From Escherichia phage 121Q: a stretch of DNA of 64,000 bases. Shown piece after piece: positions 1-31,279 of this stretch. A program made the translations under genes and the position numbers. The DNA lies in sequence record NC_025447.1, one strand, 5' to 3'. The notes beneath the pieces were generated by a model. The model did not search any database. It was not told the DNA's origin and was given only the letters and a program-made list of their open reading frames with translations. Each line of letters starts with the position of its first letter. Within the stretch, counting starts at the first letter, position 1.

Positions 1-815
1 GTCATAAACAATGGAGAACTATTAGGCAAAGTACTTACAGGAACTGCACGGAATGTAGTCGTACCTGAACTAAGAAAGTTTGGAGTTTGACCACATACGA
101 AATATGATGTACCATTATAGTAATTGAATGCATTACCACCAATGGCTGCATCGATTACACCAGAACTACGCAATCCCCAAGTGTTAATTTGTGTTTGGTT
201 CCCCGTACCATGCTGTCCACTACTATTCCATCCAGAACTATATAGCTTATTATCTAATGTAAGATACATACTATCATTCGCATTGGTCATTACTTTACGA
301 ACGTTCGTAGCACATTGAGTTAATGTGTAAATTGATGAGGAACCAATACCCAAAGAACCACGATATCCATTATCTCCTGCACCATAGAGTACTGAATTAG
401 TGCTAAGTACAAATATTAAACCATTTGTACATACAATATTAGCAATTTCACTTACTGGTATAGCATTGGTAAACCAATTAGTCCTTTCAACTAATACAGT
501 ACTGTAAGAAGTAGTTGTAGAAGATGAGAACCAGTACGTTTGACCTGATGTCCATATCGTATTATCATTTTTAATAATAACAAGTGTACGATCACCCACG
601 AAAAAATTAGAAACATCTGCACTTACTAATATCCATGAAGATACCGTGTTGGTATTACCATTTCCAGATTCACCACCTTGATTTCTACCTATGTAATATA
701 AATCATGTGAATCAGTCAATAAGAATTGACCTTGTGTAGAAGCACCAACTTTAATTATATTTTTAGGACCAGGTACAATATTTCCGTACTTAACCATTCT
801 TGCAAAAGGTAACAT
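1..815 (-). CDS. RCC1-like repeat (beta-propeller) protein, paralog A; 3' end lies beyond window edge
   Basis: Reverse ORF with no stop inside window; start codon rc at 813-815; N-terminus MLPFARMVKYGN shared with the two paralogs; repeated [YW]xxGxNxxGQxGxG blades; SD GGAGGG (rc of 821-826). Confidence 0.65.
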   Translation of the reverse strand, partial: MLPFARMVKYGNIVPGPKNIIKVGASTQGQFLLTDSHDLYYIGRNQGGESGNGNTNTVSSWILVSADVSNFFVGDRTLVIIKNDNTIWTSGQTYWFSSSTTTSYSTVLVERTNWFTNAIPVSEIANIVCTNGLIFVLSTNSVLYGAGDNGYRGSLGIGSSSIYTLTQCATNVRKVMTNANDSMYLTLDNKLYSSGWNSSGQHGTGNQTQINTWGLRSSGVIDAAIGGNAFNYYNGTSYFVCGQTPNFLSSGTTTFRAVPVSTLPNSSPLFM

Positions 816-889
816 AATTCCCTCCTTTATTCATTATACTATATTTAATACAAAAAAGAAAAGCCAGTATCAAGTACTGGCATATTACA
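816..889. repeat. 74-bp intergenic repeat, copy 1 (identical to 2033-2106)
   Basis: Same sequence aattccctcctttattcattatactatatttaatacaaaaaagaaaagccagtatcaagtactggcatat at both loci; carries SD, -10-like TATAAT (minus strand) and terminator hairpin. Confidence 0.85.
852..881 (-). terminator. Rho-independent terminator (minus strand) after gene 890-2032
   Basis: Hairpin GCCAGTA-TCAAG-TACTGGC followed on the minus strand by a U-rich run (plus-strand caaaaaagaaaa). Confidence 0.6.
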
Positions 890-2032
890 TTATTTCCACG
901 GTAGAAGGGAATCGGGGACTCTGGTTGGAACTCTCACGGCTGGAACATTTCCAAGTTCAGCCAAACCACTCATATACAAATTGTTATTTTCATCAATTAT
1001 CATTGAATAGAAATTATCAATTACGAAGCCTGAAATTCGTCTTCCTTCTAATGCATCAAGAACCATTTCGGTGAAAGTTAATATATTTTCGGATGTTTGA
1101 TTAACACCACATGCACCATAGGTATTTCGACCACAAGTATATAACTTATTATTATTTTTAACAACACATCCATTCCCTTCGTTGTTGGATAAACCACCCA
1201 CCAACTCTATTTCACCTTGGAATGATAAATTGGGAATTAATGTACTCATTGGTACTGCTGATACTCTACCTACACCAGCTTGACCATATGCATTTGGTGA
1301 AGCAACCTTCACTGAACCATCATTAAGAAATATATATGAAGTACGGTATGTATTTACAGCTTGTATAGCATTGGTGATCGTATTGTCTTTTGTAAAACTT
1401 AATATATTTGATGTTGTTGTACTACCAGGAGCAACAGTATTTCCTGCATACCAATAGGAACCATCATCAAGAACTAACCCAGTACTGAGCAAAGAACAGC
1501 CATAACTTTTAACATTTTCTATAGTGCTGTATCTGAACGATGTGACATTAGCTGTTGACGCGTTACCAAATACACCACCCTCGCCAGCACCACAGTAGAA
1601 CCATTTTCCATTTTTCAAAAATACACGCAAATTCTGTCCAACAGCAATACCATCAATATCATCAGCACTGACACCAAAATCAGTGAAGTACTGGGTTACA
1701 TCAATCCAAACCCCATTTGTATTTGTTCCGATTTGTGGCATTACTATACTAGCACCTGTGAACCAAATAGTTCCATCATTCTTAATGGCAATGGAACCAA
1801 GAACACCACCCCAGTAACGTTCAATATTATTATTCACACGGGTCCATACGGTGGATGATTGTAATGAACCATTACCACCTTGTCCAAATGAAGATGAACC
1901 ATACCAGTACAAGTCACCATTAACATGCAAATAAAAACGAGTATTATAATTTGCTTGTAATCTATTTTTAAATAGAGGTTTTGGTTCTGGTGCTTCATTT
2001 CCGTACTTAACCATTCTTGCAAAAGGTAACAT
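890..2032 (-). CDS. RCC1-like repeat (beta-propeller) protein, paralog B; possible virion fibre or host-interaction protein
   Basis: 380-aa ORF; N-terminus MLPFARMVKYGN; Gly/Asn/Ser/Thr-rich blades such as YxxGxNxxGQxG; SD upstream. Confidence 0.75.
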   Translation of the reverse strand: MLPFARMVKYGNEAPEPKPLFKNRLQANYNTRFYLHVNGDLYWYGSSSFGQGGNGSLQSSTVWTRVNNNIERYWGGVLGSIAIKNDGTIWFTGASIVMPQIGTNTNGVWIDVTQYFTDFGVSADDIDGIAVGQNLRVFLKNGKWFYCGAGEGGVFGNASTANVTSFRYSTIENVKSYGCSLLSTGLVLDDGSYWYAGNTVAPGSTTTSNILSFTKDNTITNAIQAVNTYRTSYIFLNDGSVKVASPNAYGQAGVGRVSAVPMSTLIPNLSFQGEIELVGGLSNNEGNGCVVKNNNKLYTCGRNTYGACGVNQTSENILTFTEMVLDALEGRRISGFVIDNFYSMIIDENNNLYMSGLAELGNVPAVRVPTRVPDSLLPWK

Positions 2033-2106
2033 AATTCCCTCCTTTATTCATTATACTATATTTAATACAAAAAAGAAAAGCCAGTATCAAGTACTGGCAT
2101 ATCAAA
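2033..2106. repeat. 74-bp intergenic repeat, copy 2
   Basis: Identical to 816-889. Confidence 0.85.
2064..2098 (-). terminator. Rho-independent terminator (minus strand) after gene 2107-3255
   Basis: Same hairpin plus U-run as 852-881. Confidence 0.6.
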
Positions 2107-3255
2107 TCACTGCAAAAATGACATATCGACTTCGGTATAATTAAGAACGTTCTGTCCAGCAATACCTCCCATTACTACAATTGAAGCCCCACAATAATAT
2201 AACTTCGAAGTGTCAGTAAGTATAAGTGAACCAGATGGGGTGCGTACCAAATTACACGAAGTATTAAACGAAGTATATGAAGGGGTATAAGAGTACTGAT
2301 TAATATTATTACCAACACCTAATTGACCAGACGAGTTGCTTCCAGATGCATAAAGTACTTCATCACCTTTAACTATATGTGACGCCATGTTACCAACACA
2401 AGTATATAAACTATAAACTCCTGAACTCAATAATGTTGGAGTTTTGTATTGTATATCTGTAGATGAAGAAGTACCACCTGTGCCAAATTCGTTCCCGTAT
2501 TGTGCACCGAACTGTTTACCACAAGCGTACAAATTATTATCCGATTTAATAAAAAATGTACTCTGATAACTGACATTACAATCTATAACATCCGAAGAAA
2601 TCATCGTCACCCCAGTAATAGAAGTTTGATTGCCTGTACCTAACTGATAGTAATAGTTAAAACCACAACCCCATAAAGTATTATCTTCTTTTAGGTATAT
2701 GTTACCAACTGCCTTTTTAACCGAAGTTATAGTATCTACCCTTTTGAATGTGTTAAAAGAATTAATGTTTGTACCATCACCAAATGATGATAGGTTAGAG
2801 TTATTGTTAGCTCCACAACAATACAATGTACCATCGTTTGTTATCAAATTTACCTTCATATCATTAAAACTACTCATGTATTTTATATCAGAAACATTAA
2901 TACCACCTGATGTTATCCATGTAGTACAGTCCGTCCACAAAGTTTTTCTATCAGTTACACCAGTGAATGCCTTCGTGTTGCCAGTGATAAAAACTTTTCC
3001 CGTACCTTTCTCTTCGTACAATTGACAATCACTACTGTTATCTTCCAATAGAACTCGTTTAACATTCTCCGCACAAAGAATAAATTTACTCGATGCTACA
3101 CCTGTTCCAGTACCCCAATTCGTCGCAGAAGATGCATACAACTTATCAGTATAAGTATCATGAAGATACATGGAATCACTGGAATATATTTTAAAACGTC
3201 CATCATCACCAGGGGCAATATTCCCGTACTTAACCATTCTTGCAAAAGGTAACAT
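2107..3255 (-). CDS. RCC1-like repeat (beta-propeller) protein, paralog C
   Basis: ORF track gives 2107-3291; start trimmed to the Met of MLPFARMVKYGN (rc ATG 3253-3255), which has the same SD context as the paralogs; blades such as YASGSNSSGQLGVGN and WGCGFNYYYQLGTGN. Confidence 0.7.
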   Translation of the reverse strand: MLPFARMVKYGNIAPGDDGRFKIYSSDSMYLHDTYTDKLYASSATNWGTGTGVASSKFILCAENVKRVLLEDNSSDCQLYEEKGTGKVFITGNTKAFTGVTDRKTLWTDCTTWITSGGINVSDIKYMSSFNDMKVNLITNDGTLYCCGANNNSNLSSFGDGTNINSFNTFKRVDTITSVKKAVGNIYLKEDNTLWGCGFNYYYQLGTGNQTSITGVTMISSDVIDCNVSYQSTFFIKSDNNLYACGKQFGAQYGNEFGTGGTSSSTDIQYKTPTLLSSGVYSLYTCVGNMASHIVKGDEVLYASGSNSSGQLGVGNNINQYSYTPSYTSFNTSCNLVRTPSGSLILTDTSKLYYCGASIVVMGGIAGQNVLNYTEVDMSFLQ

Positions 3256-3303
3256 AATTCCCTCCTTATTCATTATATCATATTTACCCAATAAAGAAAA
3301 CCC

Positions 3304-3332
3304 TTGACATCCTTTCAGTACTGTTGTACTAT
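3304..3332 (+). promoter_or_regulatory. sigma70-like promoter for small-gene array 1
   Basis: TTGACA, 17-nt spacer containing CAGTACTG, TACTAT; divergent from the RCC1 genes. Confidence 0.55.
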
Positions 3333-3357
3333 AGAAGGAATATAAGGAGAACTACAC

Positions 3358-3585
3358 ATGACAAATACTCTTAAGTACTACCTCAATACTCTAAATGAAC
3401 TAGAGTACGGGGAGTTTCTCTCGGATAGTTCGTGGCTAATTGAGCTAAAAAATTATAATAGTCCAGGATGCACCCTTATGATGAACAATGCAATTGATAC
3501 CCTCATTGTGAGTATTTTACACAGCAACATCTGCGGGGATAGCAATAAACAATTATCAAAAATCTTAGTACTGCTATCTATATGA
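3358..3585 (+). CDS. family-1 small protein (~60-75 aa tandem paralog)
   Basis: SD AAGGAG; first gene of array. Confidence 0.6.
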   Translation: MTNTLKYYLNTLNELEYGEFLSDSSWLIELKNYNSPGCTLMMNNAIDTLIVSILHSNICGDSNKQLSKILVLLSI

Positions 3586-3785
3586 ATATCGAACAGTACT
3601 ACATCGATGCACTACCAACAAAAGGTCTACGAGAAAGCCTACTGTATACACAAAATACTATTATACACTACAAACGTTGTCCTAAACTCCTGAACTCGTA
3701 CAGGAATAATATCATAAGAAATGCTTTACAAGGGGCAGAAAGTATGCAATACTATTATATCCTTGCCCTTTTAATCGAGTACTAA
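3582..3785 (+). CDS. family-1 small protein
   Basis: ATGA stop/start overlap; C-terminus ...LALLIEY. Confidence 0.6.
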   Translation: MNIEQYYIDALPTKGLRESLLYTQNTIIHYKRCPKLLNSYRNNIIRNALQGAESMQYYYILALLIEY

Positions 3786-3786
3786 T

Positions 3787-3996
3787 ATGAATACTGAACA
3801 TAAAGAATTCTACACCAAATACCTTAGCAACGAAGAACAATTGTTTCTAAGGAGTGTATCACCTTTAAGTATAGATACACCACACGCCAGAGATTGCTTT
3901 AATAATTGTATACGTAGTACTCTAGAAGCAATCGAATGTAATAACAAAAATATTATGTACTCTGGTTTAATAGGACTAATATATTTCTATGAATAA
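3787..3996 (+). CDS. family-1 small protein
   Basis: N-terminus MNTEHKEFY; abuts previous stop. Confidence 0.6.
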   Translation: MNTEHKEFYTKYLSNEEQLFLRSVSPLSIDTPHARDCFNNCIRSTLEAIECNNKNIMYSGLIGLIYFYE

Positions 3997-4183
3997 TCAT
4001 AAAGATTTCTATTGTAGTAAACTACCCAAACAAGAACAGCTATCATTCTCTTTAGCACCACCTATGAGAAAGGATAATCTGTATTATAATTACGATTTCA
4101 GGATGGTGACACGTTATGCAATAGAACATACGTTCCCTGCAACTAAGTACCGCTCTATCCTGAACCTCATCTTTAAGTTCTAA
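3989..4183 (+). CDS. family-1 small protein
   Basis: N-terminus MNNHKDFY; overlaps previous gene end. Confidence 0.6.
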   Translation: MNNHKDFYCSKLPKQEQLSFSLAPPMRKDNLYYNYDFRMVTRYAIEHTFPATKYRSILNLIFKF

Positions 4184-4235
4184 AAGGTACACCAGGGACC
4201 GAGTACTTTAATATAGTAAGGCTAATTACATTATA

Positions 4236-4421
4236 ATGAATCATATAAGCTACTACTACCAACAACTATCCGACAGAGACAAGTACAGTCACAACTCCCA
4301 TGTGTGGTACTACAAACGCGGCAGTATAAGAGACAAACAACATTACTTCTGTATTTCTATTAAAGAAGCACTAACAACTAAGTACACGTACCGAGCAGTA
4401 CTTAAACTTATTGAAATGTAA
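4236..4421 (+). CDS. family-1 small protein
   Basis: Array member; C-terminus KLIEM. Confidence 0.55.
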   Translation: MNHISYYYQQLSDRDKYSHNSHVWYYKRGSIRDKQHYFCISIKEALTTKYTYRAVLKLIEM

Positions 4422-4429
4422 GGAAGAAA

Positions 4430-4612
4430 ATGAATATAGAATTCTATTTAACTAAACTACAACACGCCGAAAGATTCAACTTCAATAAGTTCAATATTTT
4501 CTACAATTGCGGGAACAAAAAAGATAAACACACCTTCCTATATGTCGTCACAAGAGATGCACAAAACGAAAAGTACACATACAGAGAAGTAATGAAACTA
4601 ATCGCTATTTAA
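4430..4612 (+). CDS. family-1 small protein
   Basis: Array member; C-terminus MKLIAI. Confidence 0.55.
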   Translation: MNIEFYLTKLQHAERFNFNKFNIFYNCGNKKDKHTFLYVVTRDAQNEKYTYREVMKLIAI

Positions 4613-4620
4613 GGAATACT

Positions 4621-4800
4621 ATGCAACAATTCTATATAGAACGTATAACCATAAAAGACCGTTTCATGTACGACACCTTCGTTGATTACTACAACCTAGG
4701 AACAAAAAGTACTAAAAATATTAATCTCAATAGCTGCATTTATGCTGTACTAACACAAGATAATCCCTACAGGGAAATCCTCGCACTGGCATCTATATAA
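4621..4800 (+). CDS. family-1 small protein (59 aa, below ORF-track cutoff)
   Basis: ATG 4621 after SD AAGGAA; translated by hand MQQFYIERITIKD...ILALASI; fills a gap in the array. Confidence 0.5.
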   Translation: MQQFYIERITIKDRFMYDTFVDYYNLGTKSTKNINLNSCIYAVLTQDNPYREILALASI

Positions 4801-4810
4801 AGGAAACCAA

Positions 4811-5482
4811 ATGAAACTTAATGCACACAGCAAACAATACCTTAAGCACTTTAAGTACCTCAATAGTATTCAGGCAGAATCCGTTACATCTGCATATACG
4901 TATCACCCGAATGTACTAAAGAAACGAAATAAAAAGGAAAAATCCAGTACAAATGGAGTTAACGTATCAAAGAACCTTGAATTGTACATGAAGAAAAATA
5001 ATATAGCTGTTCATTATATGAATATCTATAATACTGATTTAAAAGTATTGAGTACTAATACGAGCACGAAGGTACTAAAGAACGCATCCTTCATCATCAA
5101 TATGCAGTTGGATAATACCCCGTGCACTTTAATGCTATACTTCGGGAATACATACTTCTTCGGGAATTGTAACACCTCCCACGATGTCAATACAGCACAA
5201 TTCCAAATGGGTGGCATATACTCTACTGATGCAGAAAAAGTACACGAGAATATGCACTTCTGGCAAGCACAACGTACAGAAGAAACTAAATCAATTGTAG
5301 ATTTCCTCAAAGAACTAGAACACAAAGAACTACAGGAAGAAGAACTATTCATGTACAGTACTGTAATCGATAATCCAGTACTCTATAAAAACGCGTACAA
5401 TCTGACAAAACATGTACAGGAAATTATCAGTACTAATAAGAAAATGCATCACCTCATTACGTATATTACAAACTATGTATAA
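4811..5482 (+). CDS. hypothetical protein (223 aa) embedded in array 1
   Basis: Long ORF; SD AAGGAAACC; no family motif recognised. Confidence 0.55.
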   Translation: MKLNAHSKQYLKHFKYLNSIQAESVTSAYTYHPNVLKKRNKKEKSSTNGVNVSKNLELYMKKNNIAVHYMNIYNTDLKVLSTNTSTKVLKNASFIINMQLDNTPCTLMLYFGNTYFFGNCNTSHDVNTAQFQMGGIYSTDAEKVHENMHFWQAQRTEETKSIVDFLKELEHKELQEEELFMYSTVIDNPVLYKNAYNLTKHVQEIISTNKKMHHLITYITNYV

Positions 5483-5657
5483 AGAATACTATATCTCTAA
5501 ACTACCCGTGCAGCAAAAATACTTTGCTGCATACAAAGTTCTTCTCATAACTCGTGCCGCTCGATCTAACTACATGAATAGCGTAAAACGTGCTATAGAA
5601 AATGATGACGCAATGAACCAGTACTATAACATTTTACTACTAATATATAAGTACTAA
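5475..5657 (+). CDS. family-1 small protein
   Basis: Start trimmed from 5412 to MYKEYYISKLP, overlapping the stop of the previous gene. Confidence 0.55.
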   Translation: MYKEYYISKLPVQQKYFAAYKVLLITRAARSNYMNSVKRAIENDDAMNQYYNILLLIYKY

Positions 5658-5667
5658 AGAGAACAAC

Positions 5668-5850
5668 ATGCACAAAGAATACTACAGGGATAAAATACCT
5701 ATGCATCTCCAGCACCATATACCAACAGAACCAATAGGAATAAAAGATCACGCAAAGATAATGTTCCAACAATGTACTAAGTACACGCTCATATACGATG
5801 ATAATCCATATATGCTGTACTACGTAGTAATGCTAACATTCAGGTACTAA
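5668..5850 (+). CDS. family-1 small protein
   Basis: MHKEYY...MLTFRY. Confidence 0.6.
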   Translation: MHKEYYRDKIPMHLQHHIPTEPIGIKDHAKIMFQQCTKYTLIYDDNPYMLYYVVMLTFRY

Positions 5851-5851
5851 T

Positions 5852-6043
5852 ATGAATAACCACAAAGAATACTACATAGAGAAACTCCCAATGTATCTCC
5901 AACACCTTGTACCAACAGAACCATTGGGTATAGAAAAAAACTACGAAAAAGACTACTTCATTCAGTGCACTAAATCCTCGATATATATTGAAGACTATAA
6001 TCGAGTACTGTATCACATCCTTTTACTAATATATAAGTACTAA
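5852..6043 (+). CDS. family-1 small protein
   Basis: MNNHKEYY...LLLIYKY. Confidence 0.6.
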   Translation: MNNHKEYYIEKLPMYLQHLVPTEPLGIEKNYEKDYFIQCTKSSIYIEDYNRVLYHILLLIYKY

Positions 6044-6044
6044 T

Positions 6045-6227
6045 ATGCACAAAGAATACTACACACAATTTCTCCCCAGCATTTTTGAACACTACGCCAG
6101 ATATAAAGTCCCTCTGGATAACGATTTGGCAGTACTGGGATTCAATAACTGCATAGAACGAAGTATAGAAAATAGTAGTAGTTATGACCAGCTATATAAC
6201 ACTATCCTACTTATATTCAGGTACTAA
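6045..6227 (+). CDS. family-1 small protein
   Basis: MHKEYY...ILLIFRY. Confidence 0.6.
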   Translation: MHKEYYTQFLPSIFEHYARYKVPLDNDLAVLGFNNCIERSIENSSSYDQLYNTILLIFRY

Positions 6228-6228
6228 C

Positions 6229-6417
6229 ATGCATAAAGAATACTACACAAAATATTTCCCAATGTACCTCAGAACTAATCTATTAGATAAACCTCGCGGT
6301 ATCAATGCACAAAATGATAAAGTGTATTTTACTATGTGCACTAAAGCATGTATACTAGATTTTGACAGCTACCATCGAGTACTGTATCATACCCTGTACC
6401 TAGCTTTCGTATTCTAA
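6229..6417 (+). CDS. family-1 small protein
   Basis: Start trimmed from 6184 to MHKEYYTKYFP, immediately after previous stop. Confidence 0.6.
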   Translation: MHKEYYTKYFPMYLRTNLLDKPRGINAQNDKVYFTMCTKACILDFDSYHRVLYHTLYLAFVF

Positions 6418-6426
6418 GAGAACAAT

Positions 6427-6612
6427 ATGCATAAAGAATTCTACTTAAGCCATCTGGATCTAAACTCCCAAATGCTTATACCACTAATCCCAATAGATAT
6501 CAAGGATAAGAAAAATACCGAACAATTCATTTACCATACACAGTGTGCGATCACCCCAAATTACATTCCATATGAATTGTACTACATTCTCGCCCTAATA
6601 TATAGGTACTAA
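6427..6612 (+). CDS. family-1 small protein
   Basis: MHKEFY...LALIYRY. Confidence 0.6.
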   Translation: MHKEFYLSHLDLNSQMLIPLIPIDIKDKKNTEQFIYHTQCAITPNYIPYELYYILALIYRY

Positions 6613-6613
6613 T

Positions 6614-6799
6614 ATGCATAGAGAATACTACACACAATTTGTTAAAGGGAACTACAAACATGCCGTACCCAGAACCCCTTTAAATTCTCATGACCCAAGT
6701 ACTATATTCTTGTTTAATGACGCAATACGTACAGTACTCAATACTAAAGATGAAGATGTGCAGTACGTATTCTTACTATTACTTATATACAGACACTAA
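6614..6799 (+). CDS. family-1 small protein
   Basis: MHREYY...LLLIYRH. Confidence 0.6.
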   Translation: MHREYYTQFVKGNYKHAVPRTPLNSHDPSTIFLFNDAIRTVLNTKDEDVQYVFLLLLIYRH

Positions 6800-6804
6800 C
6801 TAAT

Positions 6805-6987
6805 ATGAATAAAGAACATAAAGAATTCTATATAAGAAAACTAACATTCGTCCCCGTAAGAATATATAAAGAATGCGACCCAAGATTATACCTATGGCAC
6901 TTCAATGAGTGCATAAAAGATTCTATATACCCTAAGAACTATAAAGAACAATTGTGCTCAGTACTAACACTAGTACTATCATATTAA
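6805..6987 (+). CDS. family-1 small protein
   Basis: MNKEHKEFY...TLVLSY. Confidence 0.6.
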   Translation: MNKEHKEFYIRKLTFVPVRIYKECDPRLYLWHFNECIKDSIYPKNYKEQLCSVLTLVLSY

Positions 6988-7002
6988 TTAATAGAGAATA
7001 CT

Positions 7003-7194
7003 ATGTATAAAAACTTCTATATAAGTAAACTAAAAGAAAATGAACAAGTATGGATTAGATCTATAATTCCACTGGCATTTAATAGATATGCATTTAACAG
7101 ATGTACCGAGATTGCTATAGACCCTTATAATATTAAAGAGAATGTACAGTATAATCAGTACTACTATATCTTAATGCTTATATATAGGAAGTAA
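7003..7194 (+). CDS. family-1 small protein (last of array)
   Basis: MYKNFYISKL...LMLIYRK. Confidence 0.6.
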   Translation: MYKNFYISKLKENEQVWIRSIIPLAFNRYAFNRCTEIAIDPYNIKENVQYNQYYYILMLIYRK

Positions 7195-7289
7195 TTAAAC
7201 ACAAGTAGACAGGGGAAGCTCCTAGTGAACAACCTTTATGTACAGGCGAATTGTTAAAATTCAGCCTGGACAAATGCGATCACTAGGAT

Positions 7290-7400
7290 TCTCCCCAGGC
7301 TAAACCCCGTAATCATAGGTAGTCATAAGTAATCATATATAAACATTTAAGTAATCATTTATAATCACTGTAGTGATCAGTAGTGATCAGTAGTGAGTAC
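7290..7400. repeat. Cluster of short direct repeats (GTAATCA x4; AGTAGTGA x3)
   Basis: cgtaatcatagg...agtaatcatatat...agtaatcattta...gtagtgatcagtagtgatcagtagtgagtact. Confidence 0.6.
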
Positions 7401-7821
7401 TAGAGTACAGGAATGTTCACGTTTAATCAAGAACGTAGCAGTACTGATATGCCACTAAGTAGGCAGAGGAAGTCTGCCGTACTTTGTAGTTTCCAAGCTC
7501 CTTTTCCATTTTGCAAATTACATCAAATGTAATCAAAAGTAATCACGCAATGATTAGTACTGAATTATTACTTTCACCTTAATTTCAATTACCCCTTTAC
7601 CCTTCGGGGTAAAATTCAATTACCCCTTGAGGCTCCAGCAAAAAGTTGGTTAGTACTCCATCCTAAATCTCGATCCTAAAAATTTTGGAGTACCTATGAA
7701 ATAAAAGTTGGATCTTCGAAAGTTGAAATTTACGTTGGGACATATAGGATTTGTGGGATATAATGAGTTTTGTAGCGATACAGATTATACGATTTCAGTA
7801 CTGAATAATGAAAGAAAGCTA

Positions 7822-7849
7822 TTGACATTATGATTCAGTACTGTATAAT
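7822..7849 (+). promoter_or_regulatory. sigma70-like promoter with no obvious downstream ORF (possible non-coding transcript)
   Basis: TTGACA, 16-nt spacer containing CAGTACTG, TATAAT; no SD plus ORF of useful length follows. Confidence 0.4.
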
Positions 7850-8033
7850 GTTCTACATAGAGAGATGAGTTGCTGCGAACAATTCATTTACTCTACCTCC
7901 TGTCGTGAGACAGTACAGAAAAGATAGTTCCTCCTGTGGTGGTACATCTTTTTGAACCTCATATGAAAATCGTAATAACAGTACTGATATTAACAGAATG
8001 GTGTCAGTACTGATTTTAATCTAAAGCATTATG

Positions 8034-8053
8034 CCACCAGCTTGTGCTGGTGG
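8034..8053. repeat. Perfect hairpin carrying Chi in both orientations
   Basis: CCACCAGC-TTGT-GCTGGTGG. Confidence 0.6.
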
Positions 8054-8209
8054 ATTCCCTCTAACAGTATTCAGTACTACATGATAGTCTTCATCCTCCT
8101 ACAGTAACAGTGAGGGCTATTGTGGCAGTACTGAATACTCCCTTTCAAAAGATAGATCTATGGTATAGTACTGACGGATTTTGGGCGTAGTAACCCTAGG
8201 TTGAATTTA

Positions 8210-30599: not shown

Positions 30600-30807
30600 C
30601 ATCACATTACAAGAAAGGTTCATACGCATCAACTATGCAATTTCCAAATTAGATGCTACAATAGGATTTCAAAGTCTACCATTCAAAACAAGAATGATAT
30701 TAGAGTGTGAAGCCAAGTTAGGTGTACTGTTAGGGACGCAACACCAACAACGATATGTGGAAATCTGGATTGACCTTTTAACCCAAAATATATATGAGAG
30801 AATGTAA
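30592..30807 (+). CDS. family-2 small protein
   Basis: Core LLGTQHQQRYV. Confidence 0.6.
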   Translation: MINITLQERFIRINYAISKLDATIGFQSLPFKTRMILECEAKLGVLLGTQHQQRYVEIWIDLLTQNIYERM

Positions 30808-31044
30808 ATGCAAAATGAAATGATATACTTAACACCTGCTGAGTTAACAGAAAGACTAGTTAAATCCAGAAGATATACAAATCAACTTCCTCACAACCCA
30901 AACCAGACCCCAGCCGAAAGGAGTGCAGAAGTTTTATTCCAATCACTACCATACCTTCTTGGAACTAATAGACAAGAGTATCATATCGAACGTATAATTA
31001 AATATCTTAAAATTACTATTAAGGAAAAAGTAAATGCAAAATGA
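30808..31044 (+). CDS. family-2 small protein (recent duplicate of 31034-31279)
   Basis: MQNEMIYLT...LPYLLGTNRQEYHIERIIKYLKITIKEK, near-identical to next gene. Confidence 0.65.
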   Translation: MQNEMIYLTPAELTERLVKSRRYTNQLPHNPNQTPAERSAEVLFQSLPYLLGTNRQEYHIERIIKYLKITIKEKVNAK

Positions 31045-31279
31045 AATGATATACTTAACATATAATGAATACGTCGAGAGATTAGTTAGTGCCAAGAGAT
31101 ATGCCAATCAACTTCCTAATGATCCAAACCAAACCCCAGAGGAAAAGAATGCGGAAGCTCTATTCCAAGCACTACCATACCTTCTTGGAACTGATAGGCA
31201 GGAGTATCACGTTGAACGTATAATTAAATCTCTTAAAATCACTATTAAGGAAAAGATACATGAAACACTTGACAGATGA
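31034..31279 (+). CDS. family-2 small protein (recent duplicate of 30808-31044)
   Basis: MQNEMIYLT...LPYLLGTDRQEYHVERIIKSLKITIKEK. Confidence 0.65.
   Translation: MQNEMIYLTYNEYVERLVSAKRYANQLPNDPNQTPEEKNAEALFQALPYLLGTDRQEYHVERIIKSLKITIKEKIHETLDR

Follow-up and report, generated by a model that had tools for sequence, protein, structure and literature searches.

Jumbo phages of the Asteriusvirus group carry a tandem array of genes for proteins that resemble eukaryotic RCC1. In phAPEC6, where the array covers gp001-010 and gp549-551, eleven such paralogues have been described and read as tandem duplications; detection in virions by mass spectrometry (MS) was reported, and it was speculated that the proteins order DNA or play a role inside the head (PMC7247149). 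Here we describe the same family, PHROG 4219, at the same locus of Escherichia phage 121Q, in a 64,000-nt stretch of sequence record NC_025447.1 (the window) that holds three array genes, g1, g2 and g3, on the minus strand at positions 1-3300. All three begin with the same N-terminal dodecapeptide, MLPFARMVKYGN, hereafter the tag, and are preceded by all or part of a short repeated regulatory unit. Comparison with related phages makes it very probable that the ~110-bp module formed by terminator, promoter, Shine-Dalgarno (SD) sequence and tag is a homologous-recombination site at which cassettes are inserted, deleted, permuted and re-headed.

The nearest precedent for the module is the promoter-early stem-loop (PeSL) element, a composite cassette of T4-type phages (PMC2839356, PMC4122927). 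Like a PeSL, the array unit is a small terminator/promoter element that begins at one gene's stop codon, extends as far as the SD sequence and start of the next, and is repeated many times in hyperplastic regions. In both systems a stem-loop, here a putative terminator, lies between genes, and where close relatives differ by an insertion, deletion or replacement the breakpoints fall at the repeats, as in homologous exchange. The differences concern the promoter, the genes and the extent of homology. Whereas PeSLs have full sigma-70 -35 and -10 boxes, the array unit has TATAAT and no -35 box; PeSLs are flanked by unrelated ORFans, but the array cassettes are mostly paralogues of one fold; and, unlike in PeSLs, homology in the array reaches 36 nt into the coding sequence, so that exchanged genes retain the same N-terminal peptide.

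The peptide itself has a precedent in T4. The T4 internal proteins IPI, IPII, IPIII and Alt are basic proteins of a variable locus that carry an N-terminal capsid targeting sequence (CTS) of ~10 residues, by which they are brought to the particle. As in that system, unrelated proteins of a variable locus have in common an N-terminal peptide of ~10-12 residues; unlike in that system, no protease motif follows the tag, and the bodies are large lectin-like folds, not small basic proteins. The array also resembles the arrangement in phages with multiple receptor-binding proteins and in the annotated tail fibres of phages Littlefix and PollyC, which end in RCC1-like propellers: a conserved N-terminal attachment element is joined to variable binding modules, and an RCC1-like propeller can serve as the module. 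Tail fibres and tailspikes, however, are trimeric and have folded anchors of ~100 or more residues, whereas here a 12-residue disordered peptide heads a compact single-domain protein.

The array, its RCC1 annotation and the weak virion signal are already published, while the analysis of the tag appears to be new. The dodecapeptide, the terminator-promoter unit, the reshuffling of cassettes and the tagged bodies other than RCC1 are unmentioned in PMC7247149 and in the other literature searched, and the published papers on UE-S1, Sharanji and EJP2 are silent on these genes. Apparently new are the universality of the tag, its abrupt boundary, its frozen codons, its presence on four folds, the genome-wide covariation of its variants and the use of the module as a recombination handle. 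We regard the system as a variant of PeSL-type shuffling combined with T4 CTS-type address tags and not as a new category. The recombination result is independent of what the tag does, and it extends PeSL-type shuffling from T4-like phages to a jumbo-phage lineage, in a variant whose homology tract reaches into the coding sequence.

The repeated unit and the exchange of cassettes

The first-pass annotation of this DNA had reported three consecutive minus-strand genes with identical N-termini that diverge elsewhere, separated by two identical 74-bp copies that provide an SD sequence, a -10-like box and a terminator hairpin. Its account of the genes holds: the first 32 nt of g1, g2 and g3 are identical, where shuffled sequences are expected to give 0 matches, and beyond the tag the proteins are only 25-33% identical. 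The regulatory motifs were likewise located in each spacer, as GGAGG, TATAAT and a hairpin with a T-run. The two spacers are not identical, however, but match at 70 of 74 positions, the differing 4 nt adjoining the upstream stop codon; the exact direct repeat is instead 106 bp long and extends 36 nt into the coding sequence (Table 1). The terminator-like hairpin, GCCAGTA-CTTGA-TACTGGC, consists of a 7-bp GC-containing stem and is accompanied by the T-run in both spacers. Across copies of the unit the stem is maintained while stem and loop positions vary (e.g., GCCAGTACCGAGTGCTGGC, GCCAGTACAGAGTACTGGC).

The region matches 35 Asteriusvirus-group genomes by megablast, from jumbo coliphages and Salmonella phages that include PBECO4, phAPEC6, G17, JP4 and UB. 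The array spans 12-15 kb of these phage genomes and contains 8-13 tagged genes in each of the seven phages compared; g1-g3 form its promoter-proximal end, and it runs on past the window start. It lies between an array of small genes, which it adjoins and which is divergently transcribed and made up of ~60-aa genes, and a block of 660-nt genes, and the same flanks are found in annotated relatives. Orthologues of the window genes occur at 94-100% identity in 6 annotated phages. In every orthogroup the ratio of nonsynonymous to synonymous substitution rates (dN/dS) is 0.04-0.5, which indicates purifying selection; gene-wide positive selection was rejected on these values.

To compare the starts of the genes, 67 array genes (65 unique sequences, 20 orthogroups, 7 phages) were aligned on their start codons from -90 to +90. 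The unit (hairpin, T-run, TTAAATATAGTATAATGAATAAAGGAGG) stands ahead of 53 of the 67, and the remaining genes are close-coupled to the preceding gene. ATGTTACCTTTT opens every one of the 67, and genes without the intergenic unit still have the tag. The first gene of the array, g3 in the window, is preceded by a diverged third copy of the unit in a control region common to g3 and the plus-strand small-gene array. The same first-gene leader is present in JP4, G17, PBECO4, UB and phAPEC6, whichever cassette leads (orthogroup D, O or M).

Cassette order differs among the seven phages, and cassettes have been gained and lost. Read from the small-gene side, with letters for orthogroups, the order is D-A-B in the window, D-P-A-B-M-G-C-H-E-I-F-R-K in phAPEC6, D-B-J-C-G-H-E-I-N-F-K-L in JP4, O-M-B-G-D-A-C-H-I-Q-F-K in G17 and M-B-A-D-C-E-J-L in PBECO4; the window thus lacks the P cassette that phAPEC6 has between D and A. 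The JP4 sequence aligns to window positions 1-885 (98.5%) and 1997-3400 (97.8%), and these two alignments overlap by 105 bp in JP4 (L001 13184-13288). Hence JP4 has a single unit between D and B, where the 121Q window has unit-A-unit, and the missing segment, the body of cassette A, is bounded in the window by the two 106-bp copies. Judged from the alignments, this difference is the footprint of homologous recombination between the repeats. BLAST segments end at window positions 826, 885, 1997 and 2100.

Exchange is also visible in the heads of otherwise near-constant genes. Orthogroup A bodies are 98-100% identical, yet their tags differ, with MVKYGNE in the 121Q window, MMNYGNI in G17 and MLEYGNI in A4. 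In the window the unit and tag of B are identical to those of A, whereas in phAPEC6, JP4 and UB the tag of B starts with MLPFGR and its unit differs slightly. The orthogroup G gene of two related metagenome contigs has the same body with a different unit and tag, the sole difference between the two contigs. Tags and units therefore move independently of bodies. Because phAPEC6 encodes T4-like recombination functions (a RecA-like protein, a gp46/47-like nuclease and EndoVII), cassette exchange of this kind is mechanistically plausible. The single copy in JP4, the permuted orders and the swaps of unit and tag on the same bodies bear out the earlier suggestion that the repeat could mediate cassette exchange.

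Two metagenome contigs, L014 (7106) and L015 (320), hold a 36-codon remnant of cassette K in which unit and tag are intact; the cassette K remnants are probably debris from recombination at the module. In the circular phAPEC6 record (MK817115.1) a P-A cassette pair stands at both the end and the start (L005 1-2360, L006 6179-8599); either the pair is genuinely duplicated in tandem, or the assembly is redundant across the repeats. The phAPEC6 GenBank entry also lacks several array genes or gives them a wrong start (B 2434-3543, C 6063-7253, H 7325-8059).

Table 1 Array genes and repeated elements at the start of the 121Q window
Feature	Position	Strand	Content
Exact 106-bp direct repeat, copy 1	780..885	-	Tag-coding 36 nt (780-815), SD, TATAAT/TAAATAT box, T-run, hairpin
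Exact 106-bp direct repeat, copy 2	1997..2102	-	Identical to 780-885
g2/g1 intergenic unit	816..889	-	Hairpin 863-881, T-run 852-862, TAAATAT 841-847, TATAAT 833-838, GGAGG 821-825
g3/g2 intergenic unit	2033..2106	-	Hairpin 2080-2098, T-run 2069-2079, TAAATAT 2058-2064, TATAAT 2050-2055, GGAGG 2038-2042
Diverged third copy, promoter/SD part	3256..3290	-	TAAATAT 3280-3286, TATAAT 3272-3277, GGAGG 3261-3265; without hairpin
Body of cassette A	886..1996	-	Bounded by the two 106-bp copies; segment absent from JP4
g1	3..815	-	5' part, 271 codons visible, cut by window start; RCC1-like propeller gene, orthogroup B
g2	890..2032	-	Complete, 380 aa, orthogroup A; predicted 7-bladed RCC1-like propeller, N-terminal tag predicted to be disordered
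g3	2107..3255	-	Complete, 382 aa, orthogroup D, first gene of the array; predicted 7-bladed RCC1-like propeller
Tag-coding segment of g3 (MLPFARMVKYGN)	3220..3255	-	

Folds behind the tag

The first-pass annotation had taken the three proteins for RCC1-like beta-propellers with repeated blade motifs, in which a conserved N-terminal anchor with variable bodies would be the pattern of exchangeable fibres or receptor-binding proteins. The repeats are real at the level of profiles: Pfam RCC1_2 is above its cut-off of 22 bits in all three proteins (g1 26.7, g2 28.6, g3 40.2), RCC1 scores 37.3 bits in g3, and phrog_4219 matches the three proteins with E values of 9e-105, 3e-115 and 2e-88. As a strict motif they are not, since g1 and g3 have a single [YWF]xxGxNxxGQxGxG each and g2 has none, the blades being degenerate. 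The whole-domain model WD40_RLD reaches merely 62-79 bits against a cut-off of 150.

Structure prediction agrees with the propeller fold. AlphaFold 2 (AF2) models were obtained for g2 and g3, and Foldseek was run with g3. The g3 model (predicted local distance difference test, pLDDT, 92.3; predicted template modelling score, pTM, 0.89) is all-beta with 28 strands, and the g2 model (pLDDT 87.9, pTM 0.87) is likewise all-beta, with ~28; pLDDT is below 50 for residues 1-16 of g3 and 1-21 of g2. Over its full length the g3 model matches the 7-bladed UVR8 (4d9s, E 2e-19, template modelling (TM) score ~0.73), HERC2-RLD, RPGR and RCC1 with TM scores of 0.6-0.75; its sequence is 14-15% identical to that of RCC1. 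As the predicted disorder covers the first 16 (g3) or 21 (g2) residues, the tag lies outside the propeller. According to the models, g2 and g3 are compact single-domain 7-bladed RCC1-like propellers with a 12-residue disordered tag, and the globular propeller follows the 16-21 disordered residues directly, with no folded N-terminal anchor or shaft. The combination of a conserved N-terminus and variable bodies is therefore real, and as shown below it extends to four unrelated folds, but the proteins are not fibres and the tag is not a folded anchor domain.

The window genes have close relatives throughout the group. Orthologues of g1 are 369 aa long in phAPEC6, JP4, UB, PBECO4, G17 and A4 (97-100% amino acid identity), and an unannotated phAPEC6 gene matches g1 at 100%. 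phAPEC6 gp551/gp001 are 100% identical to g2, and g3 is 95% identical to phAPEC6 gp549 and 98% to its JP4 orthologue. The start of g3 is the ATG at 3255, with AAGGAGG ahead of it; the TTG at 3291 merely opens an upstream extension.

The tag also heads bodies that are not RCC1-like propellers. Orthogroup H (245 aa; JP4, G17, phAPEC6, UB) is tagged and is not RCC1 (E = 1.2 with the hidden Markov model of the family); it belongs to a glycine-rich-domain family (phrog_4474), a distant tagged member of which scores 31.2 bits with Gly_rich_2 (cut-off 24.3). Pfam has no match to the glycine-rich protein of JP4 even at E = 10, and the family of that protein was assigned via its homologues and the distant tagged member. 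Homologues of H in other phage lineages begin with M[LI]E[LM]L, not MLPF. In the 361-kb metagenomic phage L012 the tag heads a Kelch propeller (87 bits), and in L021 a Laminin_G_3/ConA-like lectin (46 bits; cut-off 27.6). By these profile matches, one N-terminal label is carried by four unrelated bodies, all of ligand-binding type, and on RCC1, Kelch, ConA-like and glycine-rich bodies alike it behaves as a portable address label on binding-type modules would.

The M[LI]E[LM]L N-terminus of the untagged homologues (e.g., in PVP-SE1-like phages, ~150 kb; P0063-P0094) may be an analogous address tag in those phages. The neighbours of the glycine-rich homologue in the PVP-SE1-like phages are all hypothetical proteins.

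Virion association and the proposed role of the tag

In the reading we favour, each gene is a self-contained cassette in which four parts follow one another: a putative intrinsic-terminator hairpin and T-run that belong to the preceding gene; a TAAATA-N4-TATAAT promoter-like box with an AAGGAGG ribosome-binding site; the 36 nt for the disordered N-terminal dodecapeptide; and a variable body, in this window a 7-bladed RCC1-like propeller. The tag would be a protein-level address label that docks unrelated binding modules to one common virion site, and each particle would carry a mixed, low-copy set of accessory adhesins, easily exchanged in evolution. Such adhesins could sit on "hairy" tail whiskers or collar decorations and broaden or tune surface binding. 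The evidence tips modestly towards the overall proposal, in which binding modules are interchangeable, dock through the tag at a common site of the virion, and are shuffled as cassettes at the module. Its adhesin part, with the suggested virion location and ligands, falls a little short of an even chance.

The proposal rests in part on proteomics. Among the proteins of purified phAPEC6 virions, eight are tagged (gp003, 005, 006, 007, 009, 010, 549 and 551), with 1-5 unique peptides each; gp551, which has the g2 sequence, is represented by 5 unique peptides and gp549, 95% identical to g3, by 4 (PMC7247149, Table 1). The calculated mass of g2, 41.23 kDa, equals the entry for gp551 in that table. 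The liquid chromatography-tandem MS table for JP4 includes three proteins with the MLPF tag, with 1 peptide each and at ~1/200 of the abundance of a well-covered protein. Members of the family, including a protein 100% identical to g2, are thus detected in virions, and a propeller fold is predicted, so that neither of the two findings which the first-pass annotation named as contrary to its reading was made; the proteins are at best minor, low-copy virion components.

Other clues come from relatives. Bacterial relatives mostly have signal peptides or type IX secretion system (T9SS) sorting domains, and in BFVD RCC1-like propellers lie within proteins annotated as tail fibres of the Pseudomonas phages Littlefix and PollyC. 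Between fEgEco12 and Ecwhy_1, two RCC1-like proteins are among the most divergent proteins. The phAPEC6 virion has flexible "hairs" at three levels of the tail and 12-fold collar decorations, both left unexplained (PMC7247149). If the tag is a virion address label, it would explain how these phages carry and exchange a library of binding modules, it would make the tagged proteins candidates for the tail "hairs" and collar decorations of phAPEC6-like phages, and its 12 residues could serve as a handle with which foreign proteins are displayed on therapeutic phage. A whole adhesin library would then owe its expression, assembly and exchangeability to one ~110-bp module.

Several observations weigh against the proposal. 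Tail fibres have N-terminal anchor domains that, where known, are much longer than the 12 residues of the tag. The MS signal is weak, with 1-5 unique peptides in phAPEC6 and 1 each in JP4, and a topoisomerase, a RecA-like protein and a single-stranded DNA-binding protein (SSB) appear in the same phAPEC6 list, so that carry-over of abundant non-structural proteins is possible. In the E. coli clade the tag is frozen at its synonymous sites, as described below, which could reflect gene-conversion homogenisation or a nucleotide-level constraint and not selection on the peptide. As for the units themselves, a sigma-70 consensus scan found no -35 box 16-18 nt from TATAAT and no minus-strand site at the units, and the T4-type late promoter TATAAATA has 0 occurrences in any array locus, although it precedes the capsid, scaffold, baseplate and several other structural genes of phAPEC6 (region 128001-178000). 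With neither TATAAATA nor a -35 box at the units, expression of the array may not be late.

Among the genes of phAPEC6 are those for a late sigma factor like gp55, a prohead protease/scaffold like gp21 (gp227c) and nucleases like gp46/47. Together with the TATAAATA promoters, these genes indicate that the expression and head-assembly logic of phAPEC6 is T4-like.

A different role for the tag would be that of a capsid-targeting sequence as in the T4 internal proteins, which would load the proteins into the prohead via the scaffold core. The tagged proteins would then be internal head proteins that are ejected with the DNA, for example variable anti-defence or host-takeover effectors. Much of the pattern fits: the peptide is short, disordered, strictly N-terminal and common to unrelated bodies, the variable locus recombines at composite regulatory units as does the T4 internal-protein locus, the phage has T4-like head machinery that includes gp227c, and the proteins were detected in virions by authors who suspected a role within the head (PMC7247149). 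However, the 67 genes have neither a conserved Glu nor a gp21-type site [LI]-x-E after YGN. Lectin-like folds of 40 kDa, as in these bodies, are typical of extracellular binding, and the bacterial homologues of the bodies mostly have secreted-type signals; moreover, with pI values mostly of 5-7.6 the paralogues are acidic to neutral, in contrast to the basic T4 internal proteins, and each is of low abundance. We consider capsid targeting unlikely.

Quite unlikely, in our judgement, is that the proteins have no true virion role and act inside the cell, in host takeover or anti-defence, or are released at lysis, with the tag binding a common intracellular partner and the MS signal representing carry-over. 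The weak MS evidence, with non-structural proteins in the same list, and the lack of T4-type late promoters in the units or anywhere in the array loci would suit such a role, as would the position of the array in a hyperplastic region beside a tiny-gene array with a sigma-70-like promoter. Yet eight paralogues were found in phAPEC6 virions and three in the independent JP4 preparation, and the folds are those of binding modules, the RCC1-like propellers being found inside annotated tail fibres of other phages.

The codons of the tag bear on whether the peptide matters at all. Its consensus is M-[LI]-P-F-x-R-[MIL]-x-x-Y-G-N, and between different orthogroups DNA identity is 0.88-0.90 over codons 1-12 but drops to 0.43 over codons 13-20 and 0.33 over codons 21-50. 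All 69 genes have TTA-CCT-TTT as codons 2-4, although the usage of those codons in the bodies is 0.46, 0.30 and 0.72; Gly11 is never encoded by GGT, which makes up 65% of the Gly codons in the bodies; and the non-preferred codons AAG, TAC and GGG/GGA are fixed in the tag. This synonymous invariance could mean that the conserved 5' end is a nucleic-acid element only, serving translation initiation, mRNA structure or as a gene-conversion tract, and that the peptide is functionless. The SD sequence (AAAGG) is able to pair with codons 3-4 (CCTTT), but as a cause of the nucleotide invariance an SD-sequestering RNA hairpin proved weak, at -4.3 kcal/mol no better than shuffled sequences (z = 0.27). 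The peptide, in turn, is kept where the DNA is not. In distant arrays, on L012 (tags MIPFARVLTYGN and similar) and the Logan contig L013, M-[LI]-P-F-x-[RI]-x-x-x-Y-G-N is maintained while synonymous codons vary (CCA/CCT/CCG, AGA/AGG), and among the A4 paralogues the codon for Leu8 is TTA, TTG or CTA. The retention of the peptide under varying codons points to selection on the peptide, with recombination keeping the DNA uniform within clades; as the tag is also retained by genes that lack the intergenic unit, a purely nucleic-acid role is very improbable. Scans of IMG/VR for the DNA pattern of the tag gave 0 matches and then 1 (L011), which lies antisense in an unrelated ORF and was rejected as chance.

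Tag variants change genome-wide. Contigs L017 and L022 have 16 called genes with a tag, which in 11 of them is MLPFVRMFDYGN (10 and 13 counting LFDYGN too), and its carriers include orthologues of B and G, whose tags elsewhere are MVKYGN or MIKYGN. In A4, MLPFVRMLEYGN heads 4 of the 7 genes and close variants of it head the other three. Conversion would be expected to give such genome-wide switches, as would co-evolution with a shared partner, alone or together with conversion. Within the docking proposal we tentatively take the tag to be a plug-and-play virion-loading tag whose DNA, together with the unit, doubles as a recombination handle, and in which variant switches (MVKYGN to MFDYGN) represent co-evolution with a putative docking partner; this we hold more loosely than the proposal as a whole.

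Across the phages and contigs L001, L004-L009, L017 and L022 the tags fall into two main types, ...RM[VI]KYGN, with Lys9, and ...RM[MLF][NDE]YGN, with an acidic or amide residue 9. The two coexist in some genomes and one dominates in others, which could reflect two docking sites or co-evolution with the partner.

The array genes are annotated as "regulator of chromosome condensation" or "DNA condensation protein". Ran and nucleosomes, the partners of eukaryotic RCC1, are absent from bacteria. That the proteins condense or organise packaged DNA, as the misleading database name implies, has in its favour just the name of the eukaryotic founder and the speculation in PMC7247149, and it is weakly refuted and highly improbable, because RCC1-like domains are generic interaction scaffolds whose top matches here, UVR8 and the HERC2 RCC1-like domains (RLDs), do not bind DNA, because most paralogues are acidic or neutral and the same tag heads lectin-like and Kelch proteins, and because the abundance is too low for 350 kb of DNA; the name is inherited from the fold only.

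Neighbouring features of the window

The window has no tRNAs and no Rfam families. Beyond the control region ahead of g3, window positions 3358-7194 hold, on the plus strand, the tandem array of small genes, ~17 tiny paralogues of 59-81 aa with one 223-aa gene inserted at 4811-5482. Their products resemble one another at the N-terminus, M(H/N)KE(Y/F)Y..KLP or similar, and at the C-terminus, ..LLLIYRY or similar, and the array, divergent from that of the propeller genes, is conserved in JP4, G17 and phAPEC6. Between the two arrays (region 3256-3357) a near-consensus sigma-70 promoter, TTGACA-17-TACTAT, lies on the plus strand at 3304-3332, back to back with the TAAATAT/TATAAT box of g3.

A second repeat is present farther into the window. 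At 30804-31254 a 226-bp unit occurs in two tandem copies (82% match) among genes that are all hypothetical, and the region around it is just 82-94% identical to any phage in the collection.

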